A DNA stretch of 63,532 nucleotides from Hyphomicrobiaceae bacterium (lineage in GTDB: Bacteria; Pseudomonadota; Alphaproteobacteria; Rhizobiales; Hyphomicrobiaceae): NCBI GenBank assembly GCA_031365465.1, contig JANLYD010000003.1, positions 1-63,532 on the forward strand, written 5' to 3'. Positions 8,004 through 54,410 of the stretch are shown here, piece by piece. The translations under genes were made by a program, and so were the position numbers. The notes under the pieces are model-generated. The model had not been told where the DNA came from and ran no database searches. It was given only the letters and a program-made list of their open reading frames with translations. The stretch's first letter is position 1. Each line of letters begins with the position of its first letter.

Positions 8004-8036
8004 CTCTTCCGGTCACTCCCGGGCATTTACCTTGAC

Positions 8037-9143: not shown

Positions 9144-10000
9144 TCATGGCTGGTGGTGGCGTCGCCAATTCTCCTCCGGCCCGCCGCCTCGGCACTCTCG
9201 AGCGGCGGGATTGCCGGATCCACTACGAGGTCACGGGTAATGGCCCAGCGCTGATTTTCTTGCATGGGCTGGGTGGCAATCAGGTGTCGTGGTGGCAACA
9301 GGTCGCCCACTTCGCGCGGACGCACACCTGCGTGACGTTCGCTGCTAGGGGATTTGCACCGTCGTCGCCGTTACCAGCCGGCCCCGATCCCAACGACTAC
9401 GCCGGCGATCTCGCAGCGCTGATTTCGCATCTGGGGCTGACCAACGTCGTGCTGGTCGGACAATCCATGGGCGGATGGGGTTCACTCGAGTATGCCCTGA
9501 CCACGAAAGGCAACGTTCGCGGGCTGGTTCTTGCCGCCACCACAGGCACCCTCGATTTTGATCGCATCGACGGCCCGCAGAAAATGCGGCTGGCAGGCTG
9601 GCAGGCCGACAGCCGGCAATCGCTGCAGAGTTGGACTGCGCTTGGCATCCACCCCGCGTGCGGCGCGCGCATGGCGCGGGAACAACCGGCGCTGCATCTG
9701 CTCTACAAGCACATCGACGACATGAACACGTCGCTCGACAAAGTCACGCTGCGCGAGCGCCTAGGCCTCGCCCGCGTACGACCGCCGGCGGATATCGCCA
9801 CCGTCGGTTGCCCCGTGCTTTTCATCTCAGGTGACGAAGACGTGGTCATACCGCCGTTTGCCGCCGACGCGCTTGTGCGCCTCTCGCCGCAGACGCGCGT
9901 GGTTCATGTGCCCGATGCCGGCCACTCCGTCTATTTCGAGCGCGCGGAACGCTTCAACGCGATCGTCGAAGCGTTCCTTGGCGAGCTGCCGCCTGCCTGA
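9140..10000 (+). CDS. alpha/beta-fold hydrolase (enol-lactonase-like)
   Basis: HGLGGN oxyanion region, nucleophile elbow GQSMGG and C-terminal DAGHSV. Overlaps the dioxygenase stop (GTGA). Confidence 0.75.
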   Translation: MIMAGGGVANSPPARRLGTLERRDCRIHYEVTGNGPALIFLHGLGGNQVSWWQQVAHFARTHTCVTFAARGFAPSSPLPAGPDPNDYAGDLAALISHLGLTNVVLVGQSMGGWGSLEYALTTKGNVRGLVLAATTGTLDFDRIDGPQKMRLAGWQADSRQSLQSWTALGIHPACGARMAREQPALHLLYKHIDDMNTSLDKVTLRERLGLARVRPPADIATVGCPVLFISGDEDVVIPPFAADALVRLSPQTRVVHVPDAGHSVYFERAERFNAIVEAFLGELPPA

Positions 10001-35493: not shown

Positions 35494-35783
35494 CGTGTCG
35501 GCGAGATCCTTCTGCGCAGCGGCGGGCGCGGTCGCTCGTGACCTCGGTCATATCAGGCAAAAGCCATGATGTAACTTCGGCAACTGCGGAGGATGTCGCG
35601 GCTGTTGCCAAGCTGCGGCGCTGCGGAACCCGTTCCTTCCGCAGTCGTGTCCAAAGCCGGTCAGCCGCTGGTTGACTGCTTACGATCCGCACTTTGGCCC
35701 GAGACCGGGCTCTGCCCGCAGGTAATTAAGCCAACTTATCACCCCTAGATTCGCCCGATCGCCTTGACGGCTGCGGCTACTCC

Positions 35784-35812
35784 TTGCCAGCGGGGTGATT
35801 GTCCAATATTAA
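35784..35812 (+). promoter_or_regulatory. candidate sigma70-type promoter of the island operon
   Basis: TTGCCA (35784-35789), 17-nt spacer, TATTAA (35807-35812), about 45 nt upstream of ATG 35857. Pattern match only. Confidence 0.3.
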
Positions 35813-35856
35813 TTCGTGTGCCCTCTTTCAGGCACTCAACGGTGCGCGTTAAATTC

Positions 35857-37707
35857 ATGTTGCGTCCCAAAATTCTCGGCATCAATTTCGTCTATCATCA
35901 GCCTTCGGCCTGTGTGGTGATCGACGGGGTCGTCGCTTGTGCTGTCGAGGAAGAGCGGCTCAATCGGGTCAAGGGCGGCAAGCCGACGCATGTCGACCAC
36001 ACTCTCGTGCTGCCATTCGGCGCGATCGATCGAACGCTGGCCGCGGCTGGTATCGCGTTTCGCGACATCGACTTGATCGCAACGAGCTTCAGCACGGAAC
36101 GGCGACGCCTCCACGCGCCGGAGCTGACCAAGCACCAGCCGATCCTACAGGGCAATTTCGAGACCGATGCCGGCAATCGTGCGTTCAATCAACTGGTGAC
36201 CCTTGCCCCAGAAGTCTTGGCGGCGCGCTACTCGGTGACATCGGCCTTCGTCACCGAGCGGTTCCGCTGGGTGCCGCATCATCTCGCTCACATCGCAAGC
36301 GCGTTCTACCCATCGGCCTTTGACAGCGCCGCCGCCATGGTTATCGACGGGATAGGCGAATACGAGACAGCGACGCTTGCGGACTGCGACGGGGCGGGCA
36401 TTCGCATTCTCGAAGAGACGTACTATCCGAACTCGCTCGGTTTCGTCTGGGAATTGTTGACTAGTTTTCTTGGTTTTGAGGGCAATCACGACGAGTCGAA
36501 GATTATGGGGCTTGCTGCATATGGCAATCCGGACCGGTTCCGCGATGCATTGCGCCGGCTGGTCACCGTCGGCGCCGACGGCCGCTTCGTAACACACCTT
36601 GACGGTACGGCGCTGACGGACAATTTCTCATCGCTCGAGACGGCGCTCGGGGTTCGCCGCCGCCTGCCTTACGAGCCGTTGGCTTGGCAAGGCCAGAACC
36701 GCAATCACGCCAACCTCGCGGCGGCGCTACAGGAGATTACGAGTGAAGTGTTCATACGCCAGGCTGAAACGCTCCGCCTGAAAACCGGTCGACGCCAACT
36801 TGTACTCGCTGGCGGGGTTTGCCTCAACTGCGTGGCGAACGGCGCCATCGCTGAGCATTGCGGCTTCGATGACATCTACGTGCAGCCGGCGACCGGTGAT
36901 GCCGGCACATGCGTCGGAGCGGCACTGCATGTCCTGAGAAGCGAGGCCGGCACCCCTTCGGCCATGAAGCCGCTCGCCATGCCCACGCCTTTCGTCGGAC
37001 CCGCCTTCAGCGATGACGAAATACGTATGGCGCTCGAGAAGTTCCGCTTGGACTACGAAGTACTCGACGACCCTGCCGATTACGCGGCTGAGTTTCTTGC
37101 CAAAGACAAGATCATCGGCTGGTTTCAGGGCGCTATGGAGTTCGGTCCCCGCGCGCTCGGAAACCGGAGCCTGCTCGCAAATCCGACCACACTCGGCATT
37201 CGCCACACGCTCAATCTCAAGGTCAAGCACCGGGAGGAGTTCCGGCCTTTCTGCCCGACCATTCTCGCTGAGGATGCATCCGAATGGTTCGATCATGCGC
37301 GGCCGCTGACGAAAGCGAGCCGGTGGATGTTGATGACACACCAAGTCAAGCACGCTAAGCGGTCGCTTATCCCTGATGTGTTGCACATGGACGGCAGCTC
37401 GCGCGTGCAAGTGCTGCAACGCGACGACAACCCGCTGTTTTACGCACTGATCGAAAATTTCAAGCGCCGGACCGGCGTACCGATTGTGCTGAATACCTCA
37501 TTCAATGATCAGGAACCGATCGTCTGCACGCCAGAAGACGCCTGCAAGTGCTATTTGAAGACACGCTTTGATGCGATGATCCTCGGGTCCTATCTTGTTG
37601 TTGGGCCCAAGCCATGGGAGCGGGAGCCGCGTCTCAGCTTTTTTGAAATGGAGGCGCGAAACTTCGACAGCTTCGGTTCTGCGTCGACGCGGAGGACAAG
37701 GTCATGA
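35857..37707 (+). CDS. NodU/CmcH-family carbamoyltransferase
   Basis: N-terminus KILGINFVYHQPSACVVIDGVVACAVEEERLNRVK, HHLAH metal motif, and the full family length of about 616 aa. Start at MLRPKILGI (ATG 35857). Confidence 0.8.
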   Translation: MLRPKILGINFVYHQPSACVVIDGVVACAVEEERLNRVKGGKPTHVDHTLVLPFGAIDRTLAAAGIAFRDIDLIATSFSTERRRLHAPELTKHQPILQGNFETDAGNRAFNQLVTLAPEVLAARYSVTSAFVTERFRWVPHHLAHIASAFYPSAFDSAAAMVIDGIGEYETATLADCDGAGIRILEETYYPNSLGFVWELLTSFLGFEGNHDESKIMGLAAYGNPDRFRDALRRLVTVGADGRFVTHLDGTALTDNFSSLETALGVRRRLPYEPLAWQGQNRNHANLAAALQEITSEVFIRQAETLRLKTGRRQLVLAGGVCLNCVANGAIAEHCGFDDIYVQPATGDAGTCVGAALHVLRSEAGTPSAMKPLAMPTPFVGPAFSDDEIRMALEKFRLDYEVLDDPADYAAEFLAKDKIIGWFQGAMEFGPRALGNRSLLANPTTLGIRHTLNLKVKHREEFRPFCPTILAEDASEWFDHARPLTKASRWMLMTHQVKHAKRSLIPDVLHMDGSSRVQVLQRDDNPLFYALIENFKRRTGVPIVLNTSFNDQEPIVCTPEDACKCYLKTRFDAMILGSYLVVGPKPWEREPRLSFFEMEARNFDSFGSASTRRTRS

Positions 37708-40700
37708 ACAAGACGTCGGTCGGCCGCGATGACGAGCTGCGACGGGAATATCACGTCCTCAAAGACGACATGCCGCACGAGTTCCGCCTCATCGTCAGCA
37801 AACTGGAGAACGATAAGGTCAGCCGTGGAATGCTGTATGGCAATGCGATCGAAGGCCTCGGCGCGATGACCTACGCGATTGCGATTGCGGTCGCGGCGGC
37901 ACATTCTGACGAAAAGGGCCGTGAGCGGAGGCTACTGCTGTGGAACAAGCTTAATGAGCCGAAACACAGGGCACTGGTGGAGAATCTCGGCAGCGATCAG
38001 CATTACATAAGATTGTGCGGCAAGCCCCTAAGCGACCTGTTCGAGGAAGTCGACCGCCAAAAATCCTTCAGCGGCATTCTCAACGATATCCTTCTGACAG
38101 CGAAAAGCATCGAGAGCGGCGTCCGATCCAGCGGCGAGGGCGATATATATGCCGAACTCGAGAACCTAAAACGAGAGTCACCTGATGGCACCTACGAGCA
38201 GCGTAGCCGGTTTGGCAACTCGCTCTATCATTTGGTGTGTGAGCTGTTCTGGTACTGGCCGCGCTATTCACTCGGATTTCTGGACGCTAACTCAAACCCG
38301 CCACGGGTCGAATTCGACACCGACGAACTTGGTGATCTGGTGTTGACCGAGACGCAGCGCGACAAATTCAAGTTCGACGTCGTTACGCGCGACAACAGAT
38401 GGATAAAACCGATGGTCGAACGGGGTCGGGTCCACATCGGCCCCGACCACGTCGAGGCGATCGACCCCGACCGCGTCCGCACGGTCTTTCTCGCCGACCA
38501 GATAGAGCGCAAGATCTATATGATCAGCCCGTTCCTCTTCAATTACGTCACGTCGGCGAAGGGTGCGCAAAATGTGAAATCCAAGTACCTGTTCCTTGAA
38601 CCGAATTGGTCACTCGCGAGTGGCGGGTTGATGTGGAAGACGTTTAACGATCTGGAGAAAGACGAGCATCGCGGACCGACACTGCCTGGTGGCGAAATCG
38701 GGCCAAGTCTCGAGCAAAGTCAAGACGGGCGCTGGCAGTCCTTCGTGAAGGGTTTACTGGAGCGTCCCTGCCAAGTCGCGCTTGAGACAGCCGGTGAGGC
38801 ATCGCAAGAGCGCGCCGTCTTCGACCACCTCAGGAACCAGTTGAGCAAAGTCCGCTTCGAACCAACGACCGGGAACGCCTACAAAGTTGCGGAGAAATCG
38901 GCGAAACCCCGCCTGTTCTACAAAACGGGCGCGTCGATCTATGTCGAAGTTGTCGAGGACGTCCCGAACGGCCGCACGGCTGTAGCCAAGGTTCTGCAGC
39001 CGAGCGTCATGGGTATTACGCATGTCGAACTTGATCGCTTCCCACGTGAAGTGACTTTTTTGAAAGCGTATTTCAGCTCACCGCAGATCGGCGCTAATGA
39101 TACGCGTTTGATCGGCAGCGGTATTGTCCAGTTTCTGGCCGAAGGGAAGACTACGGCGGGGGACGACGGCACCGCTGGGGCCAATTCGGACCGGCAAGGC
39201 GAAACAGCGGAGCGCGCGCGCAAGAGTACTGGAAAGGCGCGATCCGTCGACTTCTCCAATTGCTCGTTCTACGTCCGAGAGAAAATTGAAGAGAACCTGC
39301 GGGATGTCATCAACGAGGTCGAGCGTGAGCAACGCCGTGGTGTGCGCGGCACGGTACCCCGATCTTTGCCTGCCAACCGCGAGTCGATTGCCGTTGGCCG
39401 GCGCATTCTTCGCGCTCTCTATATCATCGAGCGTGCGGCGACGACACTCGAGCGCATCTATTCGGAGCCGAAGTCGCCAGAACTAGAGGCGCGGCTCGGC
39501 GACAACAAGGACGCACACTTTATTCATCGCGACATCCGGCCAGAAGTGATTCTTCACGCCGGTGGCGGGCTGATAAAGATCTGCGATTTTTCCGCAGCTT
39601 ATTTTCCCGGCCGCGACACTCATCGCGCACTCACAGACGACGAGGTAGGCCATGGCGCAGGGACTGCGCTGTTACTAGATAGTTTCGGCATGTCGTCCGA
39701 TTATTGCGCGCCAGAAGTTTACGTGCGTCCGGACGCCTACAGCCCGACTGCCGATGTGTTTTCGCTCGGCATCATTCTCAACGAATTGCTGTTCGGCAAA
39801 CGCAAGAACGTACAGCGTCACATTTGGGAGTGGCGAAAGACAGCCGGGGAGGAGCGCGATTGGAAGGACAAGCTATACGACGCGCCAGAGGGCGCCGAGC
39901 AAAGGGCCGACGAGCGCATCAAGTCCGCAGAGACAAGCGGCACACCCAGCCGATTCGATTTGCGCGAGCTTGTCGCGCGTTCGACGTGCCACCACACTCA
40001 ACGCTGGTCGATGTCGGAGTTTCGCGACAATGTCGCGGCGGCAAGTGTGATCGTCAGGGAGTTTTTGGCCGCCGAGACGAGGAAGGTAATCGCCGACGCG
40101 CGCAAAAGCGCAGCCCCCAAAGAACTGCAGGATGCGATAAGGTTCACCGCCGAGGCTTTCGGCTATGACGGGCGCACCCTCAAACCGACATCAATGGTCC
40201 GCTGCGCCGCCTGCTATGGCTGTAAGGAATTCACCTACGACAGCGACGAGCCGGAATTCTATGCGTGCCACAAAGACGGCATGTCGAAGGCCATCGCCGA
40301 CCTGAAGCAGGTGACAGACGGCGTCAACTCGGGGGCACAGCCCTCCGCCGACGCTACGGATCAGCTGGTTCGGCCTTTGACGCACGAGCAGGCGAATATT
40401 GTTCTTGGAGCGCTCGAGGCCGGCCTTACCATCTGTTCTGGCGTCGTCGATCGTGTTTCCGACGAGTTGGAGATTTTGGTAGGACGCCCAATCCCCGGCG
40501 GCGAGCGCGCCGAAGGCGAGTTCGATAAGCTTCGACCGCACCGCAGCTTCAACAGCCTCAGCGAAAAAATCTTCGTAGCTGCCGCTTACCCCGGGGGGGT
40601 GACAGTTGCTGATCCGGTCCAAGTTACCAAGCCGGCCGCCAGGGATACGCAGTTCGCTGAGGAACTGTTAATGCTGATAGGACGAGCCAGCGGCGTACAA

Positions 40701-40745
40701 ACGGGCGAGATTGCCAAGCTGCTCGATGTGCCGCGGCCAGACTAG
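37704..40745 (+). CDS. 1013-aa multidomain protein with a central degenerate Hanks-type protein-kinase-like core
   Basis: ATGA overlap with the carbamoyltransferase stop. AVAKVL lysine (38988-38990), HRDIRPEVIL (HRD at 39525-39533), DFS (39595-39603), APE (39708-39716), FSLGIILNELLFG. The N-terminal 400 aa or so and the C-terminal 250 aa or so have no motif I recognise, apart from a Cys cluster CAACYGCKEF...FYACH and a terminal HTH-like GVQTGEIAKLLDV. Confidence 0.7.
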   Translation: MNKTSVGRDDELRREYHVLKDDMPHEFRLIVSKLENDKVSRGMLYGNAIEGLGAMTYAIAIAVAAAHSDEKGRERRLLLWNKLNEPKHRALVENLGSDQHYIRLCGKPLSDLFEEVDRQKSFSGILNDILLTAKSIESGVRSSGEGDIYAELENLKRESPDGTYEQRSRFGNSLYHLVCELFWYWPRYSLGFLDANSNPPRVEFDTDELGDLVLTETQRDKFKFDVVTRDNRWIKPMVERGRVHIGPDHVEAIDPDRVRTVFLADQIERKIYMISPFLFNYVTSAKGAQNVKSKYLFLEPNWSLASGGLMWKTFNDLEKDEHRGPTLPGGEIGPSLEQSQDGRWQSFVKGLLERPCQVALETAGEASQERAVFDHLRNQLSKVRFEPTTGNAYKVAEKSAKPRLFYKTGASIYVEVVEDVPNGRTAVAKVLQPSVMGITHVELDRFPREVTFLKAYFSSPQIGANDTRLIGSGIVQFLAEGKTTAGDDGTAGANSDRQGETAERARKSTGKARSVDFSNCSFYVREKIEENLRDVINEVEREQRRGVRGTVPRSLPANRESIAVGRRILRALYIIERAATTLERIYSEPKSPELEARLGDNKDAHFIHRDIRPEVILHAGGGLIKICDFSAAYFPGRDTHRALTDDEVGHGAGTALLLDSFGMSSDYCAPEVYVRPDAYSPTADVFSLGIILNELLFGKRKNVQRHIWEWRKTAGEERDWKDKLYDAPEGAEQRADERIKSAETSGTPSRFDLRELVARSTCHHTQRWSMSEFRDNVAAASVIVREFLAAETRKVIADARKSAAPKELQDAIRFTAEAFGYDGRTLKPTSMVRCAACYGCKEFTYDSDEPEFYACHKDGMSKAIADLKQVTDGVNSGAQPSADATDQLVRPLTHEQANIVLGALEAGLTICSGVVDRVSDELEILVGRPIPGGERAEGEFDKLRPHRSFNSLSEKIFVAAAYPGGVTVADPVQVTKPAARDTQFAEELLMLIGRASGVQTGEIAKLLDVPRPD

Positions 40746-40749
40746 TCGA

Positions 40750-43002
40750 ATGTTGTATGGTGATAATGGAACGGGACGTGCTTCGATGAGTGGGCAAAAA
40801 AATAAAGCAATGGACGAGTTGAAGCGGCATGCGCGCACCATGAAGGGAGTGCAGGCGACGCTACTCGCCCAGGCAGAGGGAGATAAACTCAAGGTCTCCG
40901 ACTACGAGATAGACAGGGACAACGCGCAGGATGCCATCATGCCGCGCATCTTTGCGCTCGATTCCGCGCTTATTCCCTTTTCGGCCGTCACGCCCATCAG
41001 TCGGCGCCTGGAGAAAGATGCCAAGTTCGTCGATTTAGCGGCGAGCCTGCGCCGCGACCGCGACATACGCGACCTACTCTCGGTGAGCTCGAGCGACACC
41101 GGCCGGCGAATACTCGAACTCAGTCGTGACCGCCTCGATGAGACGCTCACTTTCATCGAGAACGCAGTCAAAGGCAATTCTGCCGTGCCGGCACCCTATG
41201 GCACGTTTGTCGATTTTGACATGCTTGTTTGGGCCCTCGGCTACGTTCTCGATCTGAAAACCACGCTCTCGCAGTCCAACACTGCCAAATCTCAATCGAC
41301 CGACAGTGATGAGACAATACGAATCGAGACACTGGTCAAGGAGGGACTTGCGGCACTTATTCAGCGCGGTCAGGAAGGCCTTGCATCCTCCGAATTGCGA
41401 CACGGCTGGTACGCCAGCCTGGAGACAATGGAGTCGCTGTTCGAGCAGCGCGGAACCTTTAAAGGTACTGCCGGCAAGGATAGAATCAGCAACCGCAAAG
41501 ATAATTTGTCAAAAGCGTTTGTGCGGCATCAACAGAAACTCGATCCGCTACTGCTCGAGATCGTCGATAGTCCGGCGTTCGTCGAGTCGATATTCGTGGC
41601 GACGCGCGCGATCTGTGTGTTCGTGTCGATAGCGAAGGAAGTCGCGGAGGAGGCAGAACGCGAGTCGGGCGTCGCGAGCGAGACCTCGCTGTCCGCCTAC
41701 TTCACAGACCTCGAAACCGAGGTGTTCCGTCAAGACTCCTTCGGTCAATTCTGCCTGACACAGCTCAAGAAATATACGCTGGACCGCCAGGGGCGGCCGC
41801 TGCCGCTCGATCACTACGACCCGTTCATCCACTTGACCGGCATCCTCGCGTTCGCACTGGCTGAGGGCTATTTCTCGCCAACTGATGACGATGGCAAGCC
41901 AATGACCGAGAGCCTGCGGCCGAAGTTTGTGGAAATCGGCTTTGCTAACCGGACGGCGATCATCGACGCAATCGTGGATACCTTTGAGGGCCCGCTCATC
42001 CAGGCGCTCGGCGACCAGTTGAACCCGATAAACATCGAGGAAAACCGCTTTGTTGCGACGGCCGAACTTCACCGCCTGTTCGACGGTGACGGCAACCTCA
42101 TGCTGCTCGACAACGTGCAAAAGAAGTCCGGGATCGAGCGAGATCCCAACGACAAAAGCCCAACCGCTTACCTCGACCGCCGCAATCACTCGTTCACTTA
42201 CCTCGTGGCGCTTCCCATCGCACTCAAGGGTCTCGCGCAAATGGTGCGTGAAGAACTTATGAGCCGCCTGCTGGAAACGCCAAGTACGGAGTGGAAAACC
42301 GCCGCGGCCAAGTTGCCCAACTGGGTCGGGCGCGTCGAGACCATGTGCGGCAAGCTCGTCAAGACACTGTACGATGTCAATATCAACAAGGAGGGGGACA
42401 AACGCATTGGGGTATGGAAGGGCAAGCCGTCCTGGAGCGTGACCGCCGCAGTTGTCGATGCCCTCAGTGTGTGGATGGGGGTGCTGACGTGCCGGGTCGC
42501 GATTGAACTGGCATCCGGCGAGGCCGAGGAAACGCTCACGGAGGGGATCGACTTTCCGAGCAGCGATATTGGTGTCGTCAAGGACTTCTTTTCTCTGCTC
42601 ACGAAATATACATCGCCCCCACCCGCACCGCCTGTGCAGACGCAGCCGGAAAGCCCTGCGGTCGAGCCGAGCCTGCTGCAATGGCTGAACTCGATCAAAA
42701 CGGTGGCCGATGTCGGAATCTTTTATAATCCAAGCTCGAATGCCGGTTTTACGACGACCCTCGGTCCGGAGCAGGTGCTAAAGACGGTCAAGCTCATAAA
42801 GTTCATTTCCGACCGCATGAAGGACGAGACGACATACGCAGAAGTCGAAGAGTACGTTTGCACAAAGTTGATCAAGGACCTGCGGAAAGAAGTCAGGGCG
42901 TCGGGCAAGATGACTGTCGAATCCGTGTTCCAGACACTGGAAAACCGACTTAAAGAAAAATATCCGACCGCATTCCGGAACCAGACGAAGGGCCGGGATT
43001 AA
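40750..43002 (+). CDS. 750-aa hypothetical protein, no recognisable catalytic motif
   Basis: ATG 40750 lies 4 nt after the upstream stop, and the long ORF shows island-type composition. Mostly helical-looking sequence with a short Pro-rich linker (SPPPAPPVQTQPESP). Confidence 0.6.
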   Translation: MLYGDNGTGRASMSGQKNKAMDELKRHARTMKGVQATLLAQAEGDKLKVSDYEIDRDNAQDAIMPRIFALDSALIPFSAVTPISRRLEKDAKFVDLAASLRRDRDIRDLLSVSSSDTGRRILELSRDRLDETLTFIENAVKGNSAVPAPYGTFVDFDMLVWALGYVLDLKTTLSQSNTAKSQSTDSDETIRIETLVKEGLAALIQRGQEGLASSELRHGWYASLETMESLFEQRGTFKGTAGKDRISNRKDNLSKAFVRHQQKLDPLLLEIVDSPAFVESIFVATRAICVFVSIAKEVAEEAERESGVASETSLSAYFTDLETEVFRQDSFGQFCLTQLKKYTLDRQGRPLPLDHYDPFIHLTGILAFALAEGYFSPTDDDGKPMTESLRPKFVEIGFANRTAIIDAIVDTFEGPLIQALGDQLNPINIEENRFVATAELHRLFDGDGNLMLLDNVQKKSGIERDPNDKSPTAYLDRRNHSFTYLVALPIALKGLAQMVREELMSRLLETPSTEWKTAAAKLPNWVGRVETMCGKLVKTLYDVNINKEGDKRIGVWKGKPSWSVTAAVVDALSVWMGVLTCRVAIELASGEAEETLTEGIDFPSSDIGVVKDFFSLLTKYTSPPPAPPVQTQPESPAVEPSLLQWLNSIKTVADVGIFYNPSSNAGFTTTLGPEQVLKTVKLIKFISDRMKDETTYAEVEEYVCTKLIKDLRKEVRASGKMTVESVFQTLENRLKEKYPTAFRNQTKGRD

Positions 43003-43085
43003 AAAGAGTCAAACGGCATCGGATTAATTGAGCGCATCTTTCGAAATCGGGCTCGCCGGGCGCGATAGCAGGCATAGGTTGAGCA

Positions 43086-44159
43086 ATGAGCAAGGACGCC
43101 CAGCGGGCACCTCAAATCCCGATCGTCAACATCGTGAGCTACTCCTACAAGGGCGGCTCTGGACGGTCGACGGCAAGCGTGAACATCGCCTTTTCGCTAG
43201 CAAAGCAGGGCAAGCTGGTCGTCTGCCTCGACATGGATGTCGGCGCTGCCGGGCTGCACATGATCATCAGCGACTGGGATGAGAAAACAAAGACGCACGT
43301 CGCAGCAAACCGGGACGAGATCGGGCATCAGCTCTTCTTCAATGCGTCCAACGAACCTTCAATCAATCAGCTCGCGCCAGCGCTCATCGACATCGACAAG
43401 GTCACCGGAGTGGCTCATGTCGGAATCGGCGAGAACCCGGGCCGTCTGCTGTTTGCGTTCAGCTCGACCAAGGATAGGGCGTTGAAGGACCTCAACAACG
43501 ATAGCGACGGTGCCCGGGCCTTCAAGCAGAAATATCTGCGCCTGCAGCAACTCCTGGCAAGGGAAGTCGGCGGCACCGCCGACCGCGAAGTGTATTTCAT
43601 CGTCGACGCGCCCAACGGGATAACCAATGTGAGCCTGCCTCTACTGAAATGCGCCGACCTTATCCTGATGTTCTATCGTTATAGCTTGCAACACGTGCAA
43701 GGCACTGTCGAAGCTGGCGACAAATTGATCTTCTATCTGCGCGACGAGTATGAAAAGCGGCCGTACATGCGGCTCCTGCTGGTCGGCTCATGCGTGCCCG
43801 AGCGGATCATCGAGAATTTGCGGCAGCATGCCGATAGCCTTGAGCCGTACGAGCGCGAAATGCTCGATAAATTCAATAGTACCCAGGCAAATCTCGAGGC
43901 CTTCGCGGACGATTATCCGCTGCAGGTCGAGCTGTTACCGATGCATCAGCGCATCGGCGAGGACGATCTTTTGAAGATCTTGGAGCAGCCAATCACAAAC
44001 GCCAAAGGTGTGCGCAATGCCGTTCTCGGTTATCCCGAGATCGGTTGGCCTGCGTCGAGTTCGGCCGGCACCATGGACCGCATTACCGCAATCGCAAACC
44101 TGCTTGGCCAGCATGGCCCCGAGATCGCACGCGAGAAGAAGCGCCGCTATGGCGGGTGA
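43086..44159 (+). CDS. ParA/MinD-like P-loop ATPase with variant Walker A (KGGSGRST)
   Basis: Deviant Walker A in SYSYKGGSGRSTASVN, with Arg codon 43164-43166 where the P-loop Lys is expected. CLDMDV switch region and Walker-B-like YFIVDAPNG. 357 aa. Confidence 0.7.
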   Translation: MSKDAQRAPQIPIVNIVSYSYKGGSGRSTASVNIAFSLAKQGKLVVCLDMDVGAAGLHMIISDWDEKTKTHVAANRDEIGHQLFFNASNEPSINQLAPALIDIDKVTGVAHVGIGENPGRLLFAFSSTKDRALKDLNNDSDGARAFKQKYLRLQQLLAREVGGTADREVYFIVDAPNGITNVSLPLLKCADLILMFYRYSLQHVQGTVEAGDKLIFYLRDEYEKRPYMRLLLVGSCVPERIIENLRQHADSLEPYEREMLDKFNSTQANLEAFADDYPLQVELLPMHQRIGEDDLLKILEQPITNAKGVRNAVLGYPEIGWPASSSAGTMDRITAIANLLGQHGPEIAREKKRRYGG

Positions 44160-44193
44160 AGCGTAACATCGATAATGATCAGAGTTTTTGAAT

Positions 44194-45480
44194 ATGGCTG
44201 ATGACATCTTCTTGTCGTACCGACGGTCACAGGAACGCAAGGTCGAGGAACTGGCCAATTTCCTCAAGGCTGTCGGCTACAGAGTCTTCATGGATATCAA
44301 AGGTCTGGAGGTCGGAGTCGACTGGTGGAAGCAGTTGCAAGACAAGCTCCGCGAAGTGAAGCTAGTGATAGTTTGCGTATCCAGCGACGCCTTAAGCGAT
44401 GGCTCGGTTGTCTTAAGAGAATTAGAGCTGGCGATCGGTCAAAACAAGTTGGTTCCCCTTTATATCGAGAATGTAAAGTGGAACGAAAACCTCAAACATC
44501 TGCATTCCGTGAGTATTGCGCAATGGGACGGTGACCCTCATCACCGGCAGGTTACCGAGCTCGTTAAGCAGCTGAGAGGAAAAAAATGCTTCGGGAGTAA
44601 TTCCGCTTCTGAAGAGATGGTGCGTGAGAAACTAAAGGAAATCCGCACGTTTGTTGAGACGTACAAATCTGCCTGGAATCCCAACGGTGATGTCGCCACG
44701 ATTCAACCCCTCGAGTTTCAGTCAATCATCGCACCTCCAACACGGCGGATTGAAAAGCTGGAATTCATCCAAGGCGCCGGGAATACCGAGGCCGGTGCAC
44801 TCGATCAGGAACTTCCGCGTCGCGCCGTGCGACTTCGCGCCTTTGAGATCGGCGTGACAACCGTGACGGTGGGACAATGGGCAGAATACGTTGCGTCCGG
44901 CCAGAGCGGGAGAGCAATGCCGGCTGACGATTACCCCGGCACGACAGTCTTGTGGTCCAAAGCTTTCGAGTATCCGATGGTCCGCGTTTCCTGGCACGAG
45001 GCACGCGAGTATACGGCCTGGTTGAGCACAATCACTGGAAGCAGATATCGCCTTCCAAGCGAGAGCGAATGGGAATGTGCGGCGCGGGCTGGACACGGGG
45101 GGCGCATCTTTGGATGGGGTGACGATATCGTCCCGGAGCACGCTATCTACAACTGGTCGAAATCCTACCAGGGTGGGCGGACGAAACGGCCCCCGCCCAG
45201 TGGGCCGCGGCCAGTGCAGCGCGGAACCGCCAACGATTTCGACCTCCATGATCTGCACGGCAACGTCAAAGAGTGGGTGGCGGACGTCCTCAGGCCCTAT
45301 GACCCCGAGCATTGCGACGGAAGCGTCGTCGGCGATCCGGGGATGCCGGAAGGCCGTGCCGTTGTCCGCGGTGGTTCGTGGCGCAGCGACCCCGCCAAAT
45401 TGCGATCGGCTTGGCGCGAACCTTATCCCGCAGACTGCGGCGACGACGAGATTGGCTTTCGCATCGTGCGCGAGCTATAG
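44194..45480 (+). CDS. TIR domain fused to a formylglycine-generating-enzyme (FGE/SUMF1)-like domain
   Basis: N-terminal TIR pattern: DIFLSYRRSQE ... GYRVFMD ... VKLVIVCVSSDAL ... VLRELELAI, with a candidate catalytic Glu at about 44419-44421. C-terminal FGE-sulfatase pattern: RVSWHEAREYTAWLS, YRLPSESEWECAARAG, GNVKEWVAD, VVRGGSW, GFRIVREL. Confidence 0.8.
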   Translation: MADDIFLSYRRSQERKVEELANFLKAVGYRVFMDIKGLEVGVDWWKQLQDKLREVKLVIVCVSSDALSDGSVVLRELELAIGQNKLVPLYIENVKWNENLKHLHSVSIAQWDGDPHHRQVTELVKQLRGKKCFGSNSASEEMVREKLKEIRTFVETYKSAWNPNGDVATIQPLEFQSIIAPPTRRIEKLEFIQGAGNTEAGALDQELPRRAVRLRAFEIGVTTVTVGQWAEYVASGQSGRAMPADDYPGTTVLWSKAFEYPMVRVSWHEAREYTAWLSTITGSRYRLPSESEWECAARAGHGGRIFGWGDDIVPEHAIYNWSKSYQGGRTKRPPPSGPRPVQRGTANDFDLHDLHGNVKEWVADVLRPYDPEHCDGSVVGDPGMPEGRAVVRGGSWRSDPAKLRSAWREPYPADCGDDEIGFRIVREL

Positions 45481-49288: not shown

Positions 49289-50533
49289 ATGACTGCTCGC
49301 CTTGCGGCCGCTGGGCCGAAACGCATTCTGGCGCTTGATGGCGGTGGCACGCGCGGTATCGTTACCCTCGCGCTTCTCGCTGAAATCGAAGAGACGTTGC
49401 GTGCAAAGTTCCAAAACCGAAACCTTGTGCTTGCTGACTATTTCGACCTGATCGGTGGCACGTCAGTTGGCGCGATGATCGCCACATTATTGGCACTCGG
49501 CAGAGACGTTGCCTACGTGCGACAGCGCTTCGAAGAGTGGGCGCCACGCATTTTTTCGAAACGCCGCCTCAATTTCGGGATCATCACGTCGCTTTACGAC
49601 GCTCGCATTTTGCGCGGCCTCGTGCAGCAGGAAGTGTTCGATTGGACGATGCGATCGCCTAACCTCAAAACCGGGTTATGTATCGTCACGAAGCGCATCG
49701 ACACAGGCAGCGTATGGCCAGTCATCAACAATCCACATGATCGTTACTTCGAGGGGCGTGCCGCCGTTGGCGACACCCCGGAACGCATCGGAAATGGCGA
49801 TTATCTGCTGCTTGACCTGATACGCGCCTCGACCGCCGCGCCACGCTACTTCTCGCCTGAATCCATCCGTATCTTCAAAGGTGTCTCAACTTTTGTTGAC
49901 CGCGAACGGGGACTGTTCGTCGACGGCGCGATCTCGCCGCACAACAATCCTGCGCTGCAGCTCTTTCTCATGGCTGGGATTAGTGGTTACAATCTTGGTG
50001 GTGCAGATTTGACCAAGGGCGAGAAGGCTCTGCCTTGGTCGCTGGGCGCGGATCAGCTGATGATCGTTTCGGTCGGCACAGGCTCGTATGAATTTCAAGT
50101 CGGGGAAAGTGGGTCTGCGGCTTACGACGCCGTGCAGGCACTGCAGGGCATGGTTTCGGACGGCCAGGAACTTGCGTTGACGCTCTTGCAATGGATGAGC
50201 ACGCCGACCGCATCAGCGCCGACGTCACATTGGCCCATCGATCGTGTCATCGAGAATTTGTCGGGCGATCAGTTGGGTCATTCGTCCGCACCAAAATTGC
50301 CGTTGCTGACGTTTCACCGATACGATGTTCGACTCGAGCGAGAGTGGTTGCTGAAAATGCTGGGTCAAAACGTACCAGCCGACCTGCTGGACGAGATGCG
50401 CGACTTCACAAATGCGAAGCATTTGAAGGCGCTTGCAAACCTGGGGCGATTGGCCGGCAAGCAACAGGTTCATGCTCACCACTTCCCGGATGTGTTCGGG
50501 ACCGCGCCCCAGGTGGCGGAGGCTGCTGAATGA
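49289..50533 (+). CDS. patatin-like phospholipase
   Basis: Oxyanion motif GGGTRG (49340-49357), nucleophile GTSVG (49457-49471) and catalytic Asp motif VDGAI. Start at MTARLAAAGPKRILALDGGG (ATG 49289). Confidence 0.85.
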   Translation: MTARLAAAGPKRILALDGGGTRGIVTLALLAEIEETLRAKFQNRNLVLADYFDLIGGTSVGAMIATLLALGRDVAYVRQRFEEWAPRIFSKRRLNFGIITSLYDARILRGLVQQEVFDWTMRSPNLKTGLCIVTKRIDTGSVWPVINNPHDRYFEGRAAVGDTPERIGNGDYLLLDLIRASTAAPRYFSPESIRIFKGVSTFVDRERGLFVDGAISPHNNPALQLFLMAGISGYNLGGADLTKGEKALPWSLGADQLMIVSVGTGSYEFQVGESGSAAYDAVQALQGMVSDGQELALTLLQWMSTPTASAPTSHWPIDRVIENLSGDQLGHSSAPKLPLLTFHRYDVRLEREWLLKMLGQNVPADLLDEMRDFTNAKHLKALANLGRLAGKQQVHAHHFPDVFGTAPQVAEAAE

Positions 50534-51168
50534 AAATAGGCGTTACCGGACATCGGCCAAAGCGGATTGATATCGGTCTGGATCGCATCGAGGCGCGCGT
50601 AACGGAGGCGCTGCACTTATTGCTCGGCGCGTCTCACGTCGCGGAGGCCGGTGCTAAACCGATAGAGGCAATTTCTGCGCTGGCAGAAGGGGCGGATCGT
50701 GTGTTTGCCAAAGCCGCGCTAGCAGTCGGATGCGAGTTGCATGCTGTGTTGCCGTTCGCATCGCCGGAATACGAAACGACTTTCTCGGATGCATCCGAGC
50801 TGCCTGCTTATTTTGCGCTGTTGGCGCAGGCCAAGACTGTAACGGAGTTGGCGGGCACACTGGCGGATGCAGATGTTGCATACGAGGTGGCTGGCCGACT
50901 TATCGCGGATCAATCGGATGTTCTGTTTTGCGTTTGGGACGGACAGCCGGCGGCCGGACGCGGAGGCACGCCAGAGATCATTCAATATGCGCTCAGTAAC
51001 GGCAGATCCGTCGTCTGGATCGATGCATCGCGTGACAGATCGCCCTTGCTGCTGGAGGCATCAATCACGGATGCGTTCACGCTGGTCGACATCGACGCTG
51101 TTGCGCACAGTGCCGCCACGCTAACGCAACATCTGCTCGAGAGGGTCTTTGGCCAGGCGCGCACGTAG
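50530..51168 (+). CDS. stand-alone SLOG/DprA-LOG-like Rossmann protein (hypothetical)
   Basis: ATGA overlap with the patatin stop. N-terminal strand KIGVTGHRP, then ALAEGADRVFAKAAL and VWDGQPAAGRGGTPEII. This resembles the GxxGxD...A and DG...GGT motifs of SLOG-superfamily proteins. Assignment is from motif reading only. Confidence 0.5.
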   Translation: MKIGVTGHRPKRIDIGLDRIEARVTEALHLLLGASHVAEAGAKPIEAISALAEGADRVFAKAALAVGCELHAVLPFASPEYETTFSDASELPAYFALLAQAKTVTELAGTLADADVAYEVAGRLIADQSDVLFCVWDGQPAAGRGGTPEIIQYALSNGRSVVWIDASRDRSPLLLEASITDAFTLVDIDAVAHSAATLTQHLLERVFGQART

Positions 51169-51318: not shown

Positions 51319-51347
51319 GGCGGTAGGGGGTGGGATTCGAACCCCAC
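51319..51347 (-). pseudogene. degenerate duplicate of the tRNA-Ser 3-prime end (T-arm plus acceptor strand)
   Basis: The + strand reads GGCGGTAGGGGGTGGGATTCGAACCCCAC, against GGCGGAGGGGGTGGGATTCGAACCCAC at 51420-51446. It is identical except for two 1-nt insertions, has the same orientation and is offset by 100 bp. Confidence 0.7.
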
Positions 51348-51418: not shown

Positions 51419-51508
51419 TGGCGGAGGGGGTGGGATTCGAACCCACGGTGGCCTTTCAACCACGCTAGTTTTCAAGACTAGAGCCATAAACCACTCGGCC
51501 ACCCCTCC
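51419..51508 (-). tRNA. tRNA-Ser (anticodon UGA)
   Basis: 90-nt cloverleaf: acceptor GGAGGGG/CCCCTCC, 3-bp D stem, anticodon stem CTAGT/ACTAG with loop CTTGAAA, long variable arm (GTGG...CCAC), T arm GTGGG-TTCGAAT-CCCAC, discriminator G and encoded CCA. Confidence 0.95.
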
Positions 51509-51683: not shown

Positions 51684-54410
51684 TCACGCGTTGAGCGCGG
51701 TGAAGCCGGCGGGTAGTGCGCCTGCGATCGTGGCCGGCAGGGTGATGACCTGACCTTGCGTGGTGCCTTGATAGACGGTCACCGCAGGCCACCAACTGCC
51801 GGCCGTGTCGATGGTGAAGTCTGGCCCGGTACCGGCGGCCGGGCTGCCACCGCTTCGGCCCCAGGTGGTGCCGCCGTTGAACGAGTACCAGACCTTGCCT
51901 GCGGGTACGTCGATTGCAAGCATCACGCGCTGGCCGTCGACGAGCGGACGCGGCCAGGCGTTGCCGCCCTGTACGATGTGGCCGTTGGTGCCGTCGGCAG
52001 TCATCTGATTGTAAGCGGACGCCAAAACGTAACCGGTGACGGCGCTGTTGCAATCGGCCGTCGCAGCGGTTGCCGTGCGTACGAGGCCGACCCATTGATA
52101 GGCGCCGCCAGCCCCAGCCAGACCATTGAACAGGAGCTCGGCGACAACCTTGCCGGTAATGGACGCCGAGCCCATTCGGATGCGGTTCGAGTTGTTACCG
52201 GTGGTGGGCGTGAGGATGTGCTTGGTCGCGTCGAGCGTACCCTGGCCGGCGGTCTCGACGGCACTCCAGGCGAAGCTGGCGGCGGTTCCGATGGTGTAGG
52301 CGGCGGAAGCGACGGCGCTGGTGGTGTAACCGCTGGCGACGGCGATGGCTTTCAGCGTCGCGGTGGCGGCGATGGAAATTGTCGCTGCGTAAACGGGGCT
52401 GGATGTCGTCGGCGTGCTGCCGTCGAGCGTGTAGTAGATGACGGCGGACGGCGTGGTCGACGACAGAGTGATCGATTGCGCCGTGGAGAAGGTGCCGGCG
52501 GCAGGTGAGAATGTCGGCGCCGCCGCTTGCGTGGTGATGGTGTAGGCGGCGGAAGCGACGGCGCTGGTGGTGGAACCTGCTTTGAACGCCACGGCCTTGA
52601 CGGTGAGTGAGGTGGCGACGGTGAGCGGTGCGGAGTAGACGGTGCTGGCGCTAGTGGGGGTCGAACCGTCGATCGTGTAGGCGATGGTGGCGCCTGCGGT
52701 CGCAACTGTGATGGCCACGGACTGTGCACCTGCGTAACTGCCGGCTGATGGCGCGAAGGTTGGCGTCGCGACAACGCTGGCGATCGTGTATGTGGCCGCC
52801 GCGACCGGGCTGTTGGCCAAGCCGGCCTTGACGGCGATGGCATTGAGCGTTGTCGTGGACGCAACCGGGATGGCCGCGCCGTAGACCGTCGACGAAGTCG
52901 TCGGGACCGTGCCGTTGGTCGTGTAGTAGATTGTGGCACCGGCCGTTGCCGACGTGAGCGTGACGGACTGGGCGGTTTCGTAGGTTCCGGGCGCCGGACC
53001 GAATACGGGGACTGCGGCCGAGGCGACAGCGTTGACAGCCTGAGCGTTGTAGATCGGGGCTGCGATCAACATCTCGCGGGCGTGGCCGTAGGCGCTTTGA
53101 TGCACATAGTCATGGAAAAACAGGGACGGTGGTCCTTCGGTGCCGGCCACCGGGTTCATGCTGGCGGGGTTGCCCATGATCGGATCGGCGGCGAAATCGG
53201 CGATACCGTTGGCGTGACCCGACGCCACCAACGAGCGCAGGAACGCATTGGCCGTTACGCGGCTGGTGGCGTCGGCAACCGTTTTCTCGGTGTTGTAGGG
53301 CGTGATGGTGCAGACGACGATGCGTTGCCAACCAGCGGCGCGGCGGGCCGTGAGATAGGCTTTGAGCTGGACCTGCCAATCCGGCAACGCACTCTGGCCG
53401 CCGGGGTAGGAGAGGCCGGGCGAGGCGGGATATGCACCATCGTTGCGGCCGATGTAAACGGACAGACACGTATTGGCATAGCCGGGATGAGCCGCGAGTT
53501 GTGCGTCGAGGGCCGAGGCACGGGTTTGCAGGTCGGTCAACTTGCTGCCGCCTTGGGATACGTTCACATACCCGATGGCGCCCGACGTGTTGCTGGCCGC
53601 GTAGAGGTCGGCGTAAGCGATGCCGCTGGTCGAGGCCCAGGCACCCGGAACGGCCGATTGTCCCGACGTCAGGCTATCGCCTTCGGCCGCGAGAAACATG
53701 CTGTTTGCGATGGTGCATTTGAGCGTCGGATCGAGCCCTTCGGCCCAGAACTGATAGCGTGTGCCGGAGGGGAAGCTGACGCTGCCGCTGGCGGGGTCGA
53801 TGAGCATGGCGTCTTTCCAGGCCGTGCCGTTGCTGGAGACCTTGACGTGCAGGCTGTCGTCGCCAGTCAGACCGATTTCGGCGCGGCCGGAATAGGCGTC
53901 CTGAAAAAGCAGGCTGACGGTGTCGCTGGCCGCGGCCTTGTTGAGCTTGAGCTGATGCCCATTGCCGACGTTGTCGAACAGGCTTGCCGGGCTTTTGACG
54001 GCCAGGCGATTCGTGGCGTCGGCGGTGGCGTTGACGCCGACCAGGGCCACGGGATTGGTGCTCGAGAGGCCGCCGGTGGTCAGTGTCCAAGCGGTGCCGT
54101 CGAAGACGACCAGCTTGGCTTCGTCGACGACATAGACCAGCCAACCGGCACGCGGCACGAAGAACGCCCAAGCGCCGTCCTGAAACGCCGCCACGGAAAG
54201 CCCATGGCCGCTCCAGGCCCCGCTGGCAGATGCGGCAACGATGTAGCGCGCACCCTCGGCCGGGGCGCTGGGCGGGGTGGCTGCAACTCGACTGATCGCG
54301 GAGAGCTGCACGAGCGCATCGAGCGCACGGATGGCTTCGTTGTGGGTGACGTGTTTTTGGGATTGGGCCGCAGCCAGATAAGGCAGGCCCAGGTTCGGTG
54401 TCGTGTCCAT
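51684..54410 (-). CDS. 908-aa multidomain surface or tail-fibre-like protein (DUF2793-like N-terminus, GDSL/SGNH-like region, three Ig-like repeats, C-terminal lectin-like domain)
   Basis: N-terminus MDTTPNLGLPYLAAAQSQKHVTHNEAIRALD, a GDSLTSG motif at about 53.68 kb, and three repeats of about 80 aa of the ATIYYTxxGSTPTxSSxVY type. ATG at 54410. Confidence 0.65.
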   Translation of the reverse strand: MDTTPNLGLPYLAAAQSQKHVTHNEAIRALDALVQLSAISRVAATPPSAPAEGARYIVAASASGAWSGHGLSVAAFQDGAWAFFVPRAGWLVYVVDEAKLVVFDGTAWTLTTGGLSSTNPVALVGVNATADATNRLAVKSPASLFDNVGNGHQLKLNKAAASDTVSLLFQDAYSGRAEIGLTGDDSLHVKVSSNGTAWKDAMLIDPASGSVSFPSGTRYQFWAEGLDPTLKCTIANSMFLAAEGDSLTSGQSAVPGAWASTSGIAYADLYAASNTSGAIGYVNVSQGGSKLTDLQTRASALDAQLAAHPGYANTCLSVYIGRNDGAYPASPGLSYPGGQSALPDWQVQLKAYLTARRAAGWQRIVVCTITPYNTEKTVADATSRVTANAFLRSLVASGHANGIADFAADPIMGNPASMNPVAGTEGPPSLFFHDYVHQSAYGHAREMLIAAPIYNAQAVNAVASAAVPVFGPAPGTYETAQSVTLTSATAGATIYYTTNGTVPTTSSTVYGAAIPVASTTTLNAIAVKAGLANSPVAAATYTIASVVATPTFAPSAGSYAGAQSVAITVATAGATIAYTIDGSTPTSASTVYSAPLTVATSLTVKAVAFKAGSTTSAVASAAYTITTQAAAPTFSPAAGTFSTAQSITLSSTTPSAVIYYTLDGSTPTTSSPVYAATISIAATATLKAIAVASGYTTSAVASAAYTIGTAASFAWSAVETAGQGTLDATKHILTPTTGNNSNRIRMGSASITGKVVAELLFNGLAGAGGAYQWVGLVRTATAATADCNSAVTGYVLASAYNQMTADGTNGHIVQGGNAWPRPLVDGQRVMLAIDVPAGKVWYSFNGGTTWGRSGGSPAAGTGPDFTIDTAGSWWPAVTVYQGTTQGQVITLPATIAGALPAGFTALNA
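52290..53010 (-). repeat. three tandem in-frame domain repeats (about 240 nt each) inside the 908-aa gene
   Basis: Peptide repeats PxFxPxxGxYxxAQSVxLxxxTxGATIxYTxxGxxPTxxSxVYxxxxxVxxxxTLxAxAxxxGxxxSxVAxAxYTI occur three times. They also generate the Pro-rich shadow ORFs listed in the track. Confidence 0.8.

Follow-up and report, generated by a model that had tools for sequence, protein, structure and literature searches.

What is the function of a phospholipase gene whose stop codon overlaps the start of a gene for a small protein that escapes every curated sequence profile, and does the pair belong to the immune signalling that depends on TIR-domain enzymes? The question is raised by positions 49289-51168 of a 63,532-nucleotide stretch of contig JANLYD010000003.1 from a Hyphomicrobiaceae bacterium (the window, by which we mean the whole stretch of DNA that was analysed), where a gene for a patatin-like phospholipase is followed by a gene for a stand-alone protein of 212 amino acids. 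A first-pass annotation had read the two products as a possible effector and SLOG-type receptor for a signal made by a TIR protein. Immunity in bacteria, plants and animals alike makes use of TIR-based signalling, of which several products and receptors await discovery. Our analysis suggests that the pair is most likely the two-gene form of patatin-SLOG fusion proteins and a predicted Thoeris-type anti-phage effector, and that the SLOG-SLATT fusions formed by the same SLOG family are a sister form of it. On balance we favour the view that the two genes make one unit, a ligand-gated phospholipase split over two polypeptides, in which the SLOG protein would serve as the receptor for a TIR-made ADP-ribose derivative in defence against phages.

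Results

The patatin gene extends from an ATG at 49289 to a TGA stop at 50531-50533 on the + strand (49289-50533), and the predicted effector that it encodes, a protein of 414 amino acids, matches the Pfam Patatin family (PF01734) with an E-value of 8.7e-22. The three motifs that the first-pass annotation had called intact are present in the translation, where a hand count puts GGGTRG at residues 18-23, GTSVG at residues 57-61 and DGA at residues 212-214; these are predicted to contribute the oxyanion loop, the nucleophile Ser59 and Asp212 of the active site. A further C-terminal region of about 190 residues is conserved and lacks a family match. The best PADLOC match of the protein is a phospholipase effector (PDLC00758, 2.1e-34) of the cyclic-oligonucleotide-based anti-phage signalling system (CBASS), and the NCBIfam model CBASS_lipase scores 96.5 bits, under its equivalog cut-off of 200. 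The patatin is closer to the CBASS lipase effectors than to any other PADLOC or NCBIfam family, and some database sources give relatives the name "predicted acylesterase/phospholipase RssA". At its end the DNA reads ...GCT GAA TGA, with ATG AAA ATA GGC running from 50530, so the ATGA at 50530-50533 (+ strand) is common to the stop of the patatin gene and the start of the next gene, as had been claimed, and the two genes are predicted to be translationally coupled.

The downstream gene (50530-51168, + strand) encodes the 212-residue protein, a YpsA-like protein by its modelled structure and the predicted ligand-binding partner of the patatin. The motifs on which the first-pass annotation had based a likeness to SLOG proteins, KIGVTGHRP, ALAEGADRVF and VWDGQPAAGRGGT, were located at residues 2-10, 50-59 and 135-147, and they are the most conserved columns of the protein's family. 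Nothing significant was obtained with this protein in the Pfam, NCBIfam and PADLOC profiles or among PDB sequences. Its sub-threshold scores were limited to Pfam DNA_processg_A (0.28), with none in NCBIfam, and its sole PADLOC match was ShosA at an E-value of 0.046 (11 bits over 36 residues). When 46 family members were scanned singly against the curated profiles, the sub-threshold matches were to the Nuc_deoxyrib_tr, YAcAr, YpsA and DprA families and to no others, with best E-values of 0.047 for YpsA (2 of the 46 members), 0.058 for YAcAr and 0.15-0.28 for DprA; the weak match to nucleoside 2-deoxyribosyltransferase occurred in 5 of the 46. The threshold of the curated SLOG families (Pfam YpsA, YAcAr and DNA_processg_A) was reached by none of these members. 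A plasmid homologue is named "DUF1273 domain-containing", that is, YpsA family, at NCBI.

Only the predicted structure identified the 212-residue protein. The AlphaFold2 model, built with 46 homologues, has a mean predicted local distance difference test score (pLDDT) of 93.2 and a predicted template modelling score (pTM) of 0.90, and consists of six strands alternating with helices. Against the PDB, Foldseek ranked YpsA highest (2nx2, E-value 5.5e-7, template modelling score, TM, of 0.67 on the target), followed by ShosA (8zva, 2.9e-5) and then DprA (3uqz, 6.5e-5, and 3maj). The lower ranks held a Moco carrier protein, TM1055, the SLOG domain of ThsA with 3'cADPR (cyclic ADP-ribose, cADPR; 7uxs) and LOG enzymes, the TM to ThsA being about 0.4 as against 0.67 to YpsA. 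Among predicted viral structures, phage and giant-virus DprA-like, DUF2493 and YpsA-related SLOG proteins matched. Since the Foldseek matches are those of a confident model, we assign the protein by its fold, which is predicted to be that of SLOG proteins with YpsA as the nearest solved relative; the SLOG label of the first-pass annotation is thus upheld by structure and by none of the curated sequence profiles. In the model TGHRP (residues 6-10; TGHRPNR) comes after strand 1, AEGADR (residues 52-57; AEGxDR in the family) after strand 2 and GRGGT (residues 143-147; WDG...GRGGT.E) after strand 5, and the SLOG-type features, a glycine loop after strand 1, GxD/E after strand 2 and GG(S/T) after strand 5, are all present. 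The conserved residues of the family appear to map to the places where SLOG proteins bind their ligands. The polar residues H8, E53, D56, Y81, D137 and T147 are kept across the family, and thirteen pocket or core residues, including L51, A52, G54, D56, Y81, W136, D137, G145, G146 and T147, are invariant in all the architectures described below.

The association of the two genes was examined in a census of 80 loci taken from a scan of one genome per species, with the SLOG protein as the starting point of the search. Annotation of the loci, which are mostly from metagenome bins, relied on tblastn, on phmmer/hmmsearch with domains of the window and of the loci as queries, and on simple open reading frame calls for the genes. 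The patatin subfamily of the window is present in 23 of the 80 loci, and in 18 of these 23 it lies directly upstream of the SLOG gene on the same strand at a distance of 60 bp or less; the 4-nucleotide overlap is reproducible with a candidate start in ten. One of the 23 loci has the two genes fused and two have a SLATT-type gene inserted between them. The hosts of the pairing are Hyphomicrobiaceae, an Acidobacteria gp11 bin, a Thermoanaerobaculia bin and an unclassified Proteobacteria bin, and across loci the identity of the patatin to that of the window rises with the identity of the SLOG protein (Spearman 0.78, p 2e-5). The conserved upstream adjacency, the recurrent overlap and the co-varying identities mean that the arrangement is more than chance, and the pair proposed in the first-pass annotation is conserved as neighbours and has natural fusions as well.

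A protein cluster search started from the patatin side showed that the patatin subfamily is large and includes fusions. A caveat on the pairing is that many members of the subfamily have another, unassigned domain of about 170 residues in place of a SLOG partner. This domain characterizes a sibling branch (P0170, P0166, P0186 and about 25 more clusters of proteins of about 572 amino acids, at about 45% identity) and carries the motifs GDWIVTN ... FDILAPW ... YG. It is N-terminal except in P0186, where it occupies the C-terminal place in which other members of the subfamily have SLOG. The domain gave no Pfam match and no PDB sequence match; it may be an alternative sensor domain.

The SLOG family itself is large. 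A word-indexed search returned 314 homologues of the 212-residue protein, all unnamed and mostly from Hyphomicrobiaceae and other Alphaproteobacteria, and a profile search, run exhaustively over 1.84 billion cluster representatives with clusters counted at 50% identity, returned 10,757 at an E-value of 1e-3 or less, 6,041 at 1e-10 or less and 1,073 at 1e-30 or less. Relatives from phages exist. Among the best 150 clusters the dominant architectures are stand-alone proteins of about 200-240 amino acids, proteins of about 600 amino acids with an N-terminal SLOG domain, and proteins of about 615-690 amino acids with a C-terminal SLOG domain. The last are patatin-SLOG fusions (P0241, P0245, P0249, P0251, P0329 and P0355), to which the search from the patatin side added P0123, P0181 and P0202, the first of these being 64% identical to the patatin of the window, and the genome census added the fusion in locus L012. 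In total such fusions occur in at least ten clusters, and their order is patatin and then SLOG.

The lipase is not the only partner of this SLOG family. In about 50 of the 80 loci the SLOG domain is the N-terminal part of a protein of about 600 amino acids with a SLATT-like C-terminal membrane domain, in hosts that include Acidobacteriaceae, Terracidiphilus, Niveispirillum, Gemmatimonadaceae, Verrucomicrobiae, Rhodanobacteraceae and others, and in about ten of the 80 a separate SLATT-like gene directly follows the SLOG gene. The membrane region matches Pfam DUF4231 (4.5e-6) and, below the cut-off, NCBIfam SLATT_1 (7e-8); DUF4231 has been assigned to the SLATT superfamily (PMC9812332). We also observed tandem SLOG-SLOG proteins with a SLATT-like membrane region, and a protein of 1187 amino acids in which an ATPase region is followed by two SLOG domains (P0254, P0269, P0352, P0356 and P0259 for these tandem forms), which suggests cooperative or dual-ligand sensing. 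In L031-L064 (Acidobacteriaceae and Terracidiphilus, at about 8001-9750) the SLOG-SLATT gene has a fixed place after rpoD, dnaG and a pirin gene, and downstream of it come a constant companion, a protein of about 690 amino acids with a TrkA_N domain, and then a TIR-BNR protein or a protein of 1340 amino acids.

On plasmids of Rhizobiaceae and Novosphingobium a shorter member of the family ends operons with the order TIR, caspase, SLOG (and sometimes a further TIR gene) or TIR, a 190-residue protein of unknown family, SLOG. Such loci are L081 (4645-6486, Agrobacterium pTi), L082 (4617-6986, Rhizobium binae p4) and L083 (5002-6474, Novosphingobium p4). Type IV Thoeris as described consists of a TIR protein and a caspase and nothing more, so that operons in which a free SLOG gene follows the caspase appear to be a three-gene variant not described before. 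With the pocket and core residues unchanged from one architecture to the next, the predicted ligand site would be the same whether it serves a lipase, a protease or a pore-type domain.

A TIR gene, detected with a TIR profile built from the loci, is present in 36 of the 80 SLOG loci. Pfam TIR_2 confirmed all ten of the weaker matches that were re-checked and also the stronger matches that were inspected. In each of the 36 loci the distance from the SLOG gene to the nearest TIR gene is at most 2.6 kb, and none was found at 4-9 kb, with flanks reaching 8 kb; since all fall within 2.6 kb and none farther out, the association is positional and not incidental. The TIR proteins share one layout, a TIR domain joined to a variable module. 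The module consists of WD40 repeats followed by SLATT or patatin (L004, L007, L014), FGE (L021), Sel1 (L020), PDZ (L038), a BNR propeller (L041, L053, L058), TPR (L072, L074), STAND-TPR (L015, L028, L029) or SIR2 (L065, L080). In L021 the patatin and SLOG genes are followed by a SLATT gene in the opposite orientation and then by a TIR-FGE gene in the first orientation, and this TIR architecture is the one found in the window.

The closest relative of the window's patatin in the genome-contig scan (73-75% identity) is in L014, where a single TIR-WD40-patatin protein of 1153 amino acids is followed by a SLOG gene with a 4-nucleotide overlap. Giant proteins of this kind, TIR-WD40-patatin (1153 amino acids) and TIR-WD40-SLATT-like (about 1415-1440 amino acids), flank the SLOG gene in several loci (L014 4041-7502 and 8132-12373; L004 3738-8003; L007 3004-7323), and therefore a free SLOG protein would be encoded beside a single polypeptide that combines a signal maker, sensor repeats and a killing domain. 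Because L014 has that fusion, remnants of TIR-WD40 were sought upstream of the patatin in the window, and none was found.

The TIR gene of the window (44188-45480, + strand) encodes a TIR-FGE protein of 430 amino acids (TIR_2 1.1e-18, FGE-sulfatase 1.1e-44), a candidate signal source, which has a glutamate, E78 in VVLRELELA, at the place of the TIR_2 catalytic glutamate as judged by eye on the translation. Its end is 3,808 bp before the patatin start, in agreement with the 3.8 kb given in the first-pass annotation. The gene ends a run of five closely spaced + strand genes (35764-45480), which encode a carbamoyltransferase, a kinase-like protein of 1013 amino acids (with a partial kinase domain), a protein of 763 amino acids that had no matches in the profile scans, a KGGVGR ParA-like ATPase (NCBIfam NF047398 at 4.7e-16, below the 90-bit cut-off, and PADLOC PDC-M28B at 4.2e-13) and, 28 bp after the ATPase, the TIR-FGE protein. 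Between TIR-FGE and the patatin are four genes, one for a fatty-acid desaturase and, on the other strand, three for an ABC transporter of the NitT/TauT type. Homologues of the carbamoyltransferase, the kinase-like protein, the 763-residue protein, the KGGVGR ATPase and the desaturase are absent from all 80 SLOG loci, which places the upstream cluster outside the conserved system, and the five genes may be a separate undescribed TIR-containing system.

Searches with TIR-FGE itself gave little context. A protein search found no close relative, the next best being 39% identical in the FGE part only, and a metagenome scan yielded only generic FGE-domain relatives at 25-42% identity with no useful context. 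Two distant full-length TIR-FGE proteins adjoin dynamin-like GTPases or two small unknown genes, and not a patatin or SLOG gene. The suggestion in the first-pass annotation that the pair could be an arm of this TIR-FGE protein is not supported: four unrelated genes lie between, TIR-FGE belongs to another cluster at a distance outside the census range, and its distant relatives are found in other surroundings. A SLATT-like open reading frame was sought in the window and none was found.

The pair and the TIR gene share a segment of low guanine-plus-cytosine (GC) content, 0.54-0.60 at about 37-51 kb compared with 0.61-0.67 in most of the remaining window, and there is a second dip to 0.56-0.58 at 22-24 kb. 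As had been noted earlier, the pair is beside a tRNA-Ser gene; ARAGORN places this tRNA-Ser(tga) at 51419-51508 on the - strand, where it bounds the segment. An imperfect second copy of the tRNA 3' end, with 2 mismatches, lies at 51326-51346 (+ strand), 100 bp from the intact gene. The 3' end has 2 matches in the window compared with 0.01 expected, and the second copy looks like the remnant of an integration site. The same copy and the T-run behind it were also scored as a hairpin of terminator type downstream of the SLOG gene (51330-51347). A third copy was sought to delimit an island; there is none in the window, and the far end of any island was not found. Beyond the tRNA, at 51684-54410 on the - strand, is a gene for a protein of 908 amino acids with DUF2793, a GDSL lipase domain and three chitobiase-C/Fn3-associated repeats, an arrangement reminiscent of a phage tail fibre or of a surface enzyme that binds glycans.

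Discussion

What the first-pass annotation had observed at this locus is confirmed in every detail, and its interpretation is partly supported. The reading of the pair as a split ligand-gated lipase is supported by the predicted fold, by a pocket that does not vary, by the coupling of the SLOG protein to a lipase and its fusion with one, by the exchange of that lipase for other killing modules and by the tight linkage to TIR genes, and it has precedents in ThsA (SLOG, 3'cADPR), the SLATT effectors (cADPR) and CapV (a patatin activated by cyclic GMP-AMP, cGAMP). The 212-residue SLOG protein would be the receptor subunit, with a pocket built from the GHRP loop after strand 1, AEGxD after strand 2 and WDG...GGT after strand 5. 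This pocket could bind a small nucleotide; the likeliest candidate is a derivative of ADP-ribose that a TIR-domain enzyme would make when the cell is infected. Ligand binding would alter a complex between the SLOG protein and the patatin such that the Ser59/Asp212 lipase is switched on, by activation rather than by release from inhibition, and the active lipase would break down membrane phospholipid and thereby kill or arrest the infected cell.

The general idea is not without prior art. Burroughs et al. reportedly were the first to classify the SLOG and SLATT domains, in 2015, and to place SLOG sensors together with SLATT and other effectors in TIR-centred nucleotide-based conflict systems. 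The first-pass annotation knew of no described defence pair of a patatin and a free-standing SLOG protein; that claim of novelty is weakened by a preprint of December 2025, which presents 29 putative Thoeris types (10.64898/2025.12.03.692087). Its Table S2 lists "SLOG Patatin" effectors from Pseudomonas veronii R4 and a Proteobacteria scaffold, and "SLOG and 4TM" effectors from Streptomyces sp. GKU 895 and Ca. Nitrospira nitrosa (10.64898/2025.12.03.692087). Like the proteins considered here, these combine SLOG with a patatin or membrane domain beside a TIR gene and are proposed to be signal-activated. To judge from their descriptions, they match our patatin-SLOG and SLOG-SLATT fusions in architecture. 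Unlike the pair in the window, which consists of two overlapping genes with no adjacent TIR gene, they are single fused proteins in two-gene TIR operons, and they are listed with no type number, signal or mechanism. The present case differs in that the SLOG protein is separate and translationally coupled, that free SLOG also follows caspases and that the TIR partners are long sensor fusions.

In type I Thoeris the SLOG domain of ThsA binds TIR-made 3'cADPR, and SLATT effectors respond to TIR-made cADPR (10.64898/2025.12.03.692087). In the type I system, which consists of ThsA (SIR2-SLOG) and ThsB (TIR), the SLOG domain is the receptor for the cyclic ADP-ribose isomer and switches on a killing domain, and its structure (7uxs) is among the structural matches of the 212-residue protein. 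However, the effector of the window is a patatin lipase where that of ThsA is a SIR2 NADase, the SLOG protein is separate and of a YpsA-like clade, and the TIR proteins around this SLOG family are TIR_2-type domains fused to sensor repeats whereas ThsB is short. Type VII Thoeris, in which a TIR gene adjoins the SLATT effector ThsH and the signal is canonical cADPR, recalls the many SLOG loci with a SLATT domain, fused or separate; it differs in that ThsH is described with SLATT and no SLOG is mentioned, while the window has no SLATT gene. As in Thoeris, an effector appears to be paired with a potential TIR-product-binding domain, to judge from the modelled SLOG fold, the coupling and the fusion in relatives. 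The pair would nevertheless fit Thoeris only by analogy, because an adjacent TIR gene defines that system and the TIR gene of the window lies 3.8 kb from the pair.

Other known systems resemble one half of the pair. CapV of CBASS, the cGAMP-activated patatin phospholipase, is a nucleotide-activated membrane-degrading effector with the same catalytic motifs, and CBASS lipases give the patatin its best PADLOC and NCBIfam matches. On the other hand, the score of the patatin is 96.5 bits against the 200 required, it has the extra C-terminal region of about 190 residues and a SLOG partner, and no CD-NTase is nearby: no such nucleotidyltransferase (the cyclase of CBASS) was found among all genes at 32.0-54.4 kb scanned against Pfam. 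Membership of CBASS was rejected on the lack of a cyclase and the score below the family cut-off. YpsA of Bacillus subtilis (2NX2; Pfam DUF1273), the founder of the YpsA clade, is the best structural match and shares the GxD/E motif after strand 2, but it is a Firmicute protein with no known link to a lipase, and the family of the window remains under the Pfam YpsA threshold (best E-value 0.047). YpsA has been implicated in the inhibition of cell division (PMC6459960). The DprA-like antitoxin ShosA of Shosta (8ZVA) is the second-best structural match and is likewise a small SLOG/DprA-fold protein that controls a toxic neighbour; its partner, however, is a PRTase-like (phosphoribosyltransferase-like) toxin and not a patatin, and its profile match here is negligible. 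We know of no link between Shosta and TIR proteins. Membership of Shosta was rejected on the ShosA profile (E-value 0.046, 11 bits, 36 residues) and on a partner that is a patatin and not a PRTase.

Several observations weigh against a TIR-triggered split lipase. The "SLOG Patatin" and "SLOG and 4TM" effectors of the preprint, two each and beside TIR genes, were scored "Defense: No" in E. coli (10.64898/2025.12.03.692087). Of the patatin-SLOG loci with long flanks, about half lack a TIR gene nearby (L001, L003, L006, L012, L017 and L076). The window has no TIR gene inside the distance seen in the 36 TIR-bearing loci of the census, the end of TIR-FGE and the start of the SLOG gene being 5.05 kb apart, or double the greatest TIR distance recorded there. 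The SLOG-SLATT genes of Acidobacteriaceae are syntenic near rpoD, dnaG and the pirin gene, a position less typical of mobile defence islands. The AlphaFold2 model of the natural fusion P0123 (pLDDT 68, pTM 0.54) is too unreliable in its patatin part to reveal a domain interface. SLOG domains can also be enzymes and not sensors, and the family keeps many polar residues. As for the source of the signal, L021 has the same TIR architecture and both TIR-FGE and the pair are in the same low-GC segment, so that TIR-FGE could be the source, which we regard as possible but not probable; a TIR protein encoded elsewhere may provide the signal, or the pair may sense something else.

The observation about polar residues bears directly on an alternative in which the SLOG protein is an enzyme, a LOG-like N-glycosidase or a processor of ADP-ribose derivatives, that matures or degrades the signal while the patatin itself senses the ligand through its extra C-terminal region; in the degrading variant, removal of the signal would set a threshold and prevent self-killing. 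The SLOG superfamily does contain true enzymes, LOG is among the structural matches, nucleoside 2-deoxyribosyltransferase is a weak profile match in 5 of the 46 members, the polar residues H8, E53, D56, Y81, D137 and T147 are conserved, and the C-terminal region that would do the sensing is conserved. For the YpsA-clade SLOG proteins of conflict systems both roles, sensor and signal processor, have been proposed (PMC6459960), and phage SLOG proteins, of which the present family has relatives, have been proposed to degrade cADPR-type signals (PMC9503650). We nevertheless consider an enzyme unlikely. The repeated fusion to killing domains, with patatin on the N-terminal side, with SLATT on the C-terminal side and in tandem SLOG-SLOG-SLATT proteins, mirrors the sensor-effector syntax of ThsA (SIR2-SLOG) and not that of a free metabolic enzyme. 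Moreover, the motif after strand 5, G-R-G-G-T-P-E, is spaced unlike the LOG motif, PGGxGTxxE.

The loci that lack a TIR gene would be easier to understand if the pair were a self-contained module of the toxin-antitoxin kind with no TIR input, in which the SLOG protein keeps the lipase inactive, as ShosA neutralises ShosT, and its loss or titration under infection or stress frees the lipase. Such a module would agree with the rank of ShosA as second-best structural match (8zva, 2.9e-5) and sole PADLOC match (0.046), with the translational coupling of two genes of which the toxin gene is first, with the absence of any TIR gene from about half of the well-flanked patatin-SLOG loci and with the non-adjacent TIR gene of the window. 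It seems improbable to us, since a stable fusion in one protein, found in at least ten clusters, misfits an antitoxin that must be lost, and since every architecture keeps the same ligand-pocket residues, the SLOG family is closely surrounded by TIR genes and the PRTase partner is absent. Ordinary lipid metabolism, with an RssA-type patatin esterase and a small regulatory protein and no role in immunity, is the explanation that we find hardest to credit. The RssA names given to some relatives, the desaturase and NitT/TauT-type transporter genes between TIR-FGE and the pair, and the synteny of the SLOG-SLATT locus in Acidobacteriaceae speak for it, but none of the upstream cluster genes tested, the desaturase included, recurs in the 80 loci. 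The partners that do recur are genes for TIR, SLATT and caspase proteins. Anti-phage lipase effectors give the patatin its best profile matches, and a tRNA gene adjoins the low-GC segment that holds the pair.

If the SLOG protein of the window is a receptor, its relatives suggest a wider role, which we put forward tentatively. Free SLOG proteins could be portable receptor subunits that act in trans for unrelated effectors, namely patatins, caspases and the 190-residue protein of unknown family, and that are fused to SLATT pores in other cases, all being triggered by an ADP-ribose-derived signal from sensor-bearing TIR proteins (FGE, WD40, Sel1, TPR, BNR). The concept would not surprise specialists; the family itself, however, is large, unannotated and tightly linked to TIR genes, and its fused architectures failed in the sole published defence tests. 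The split form found here is practical in this respect, as the soluble receptor of 212 residues could be purified alone to fish for its ligand and the lipase readout could be reconstituted in vitro. Should the portable-receptor proposal be true, it would define a modular three-part Thoeris class, made of a TIR sensor, a SLOG adaptor and an interchangeable effector, that screens for two-gene operons have missed. SLOG action in trans on varied effectors would explain why such screens miss or mis-score these systems, and it would add a receptor class to TIR signalling.

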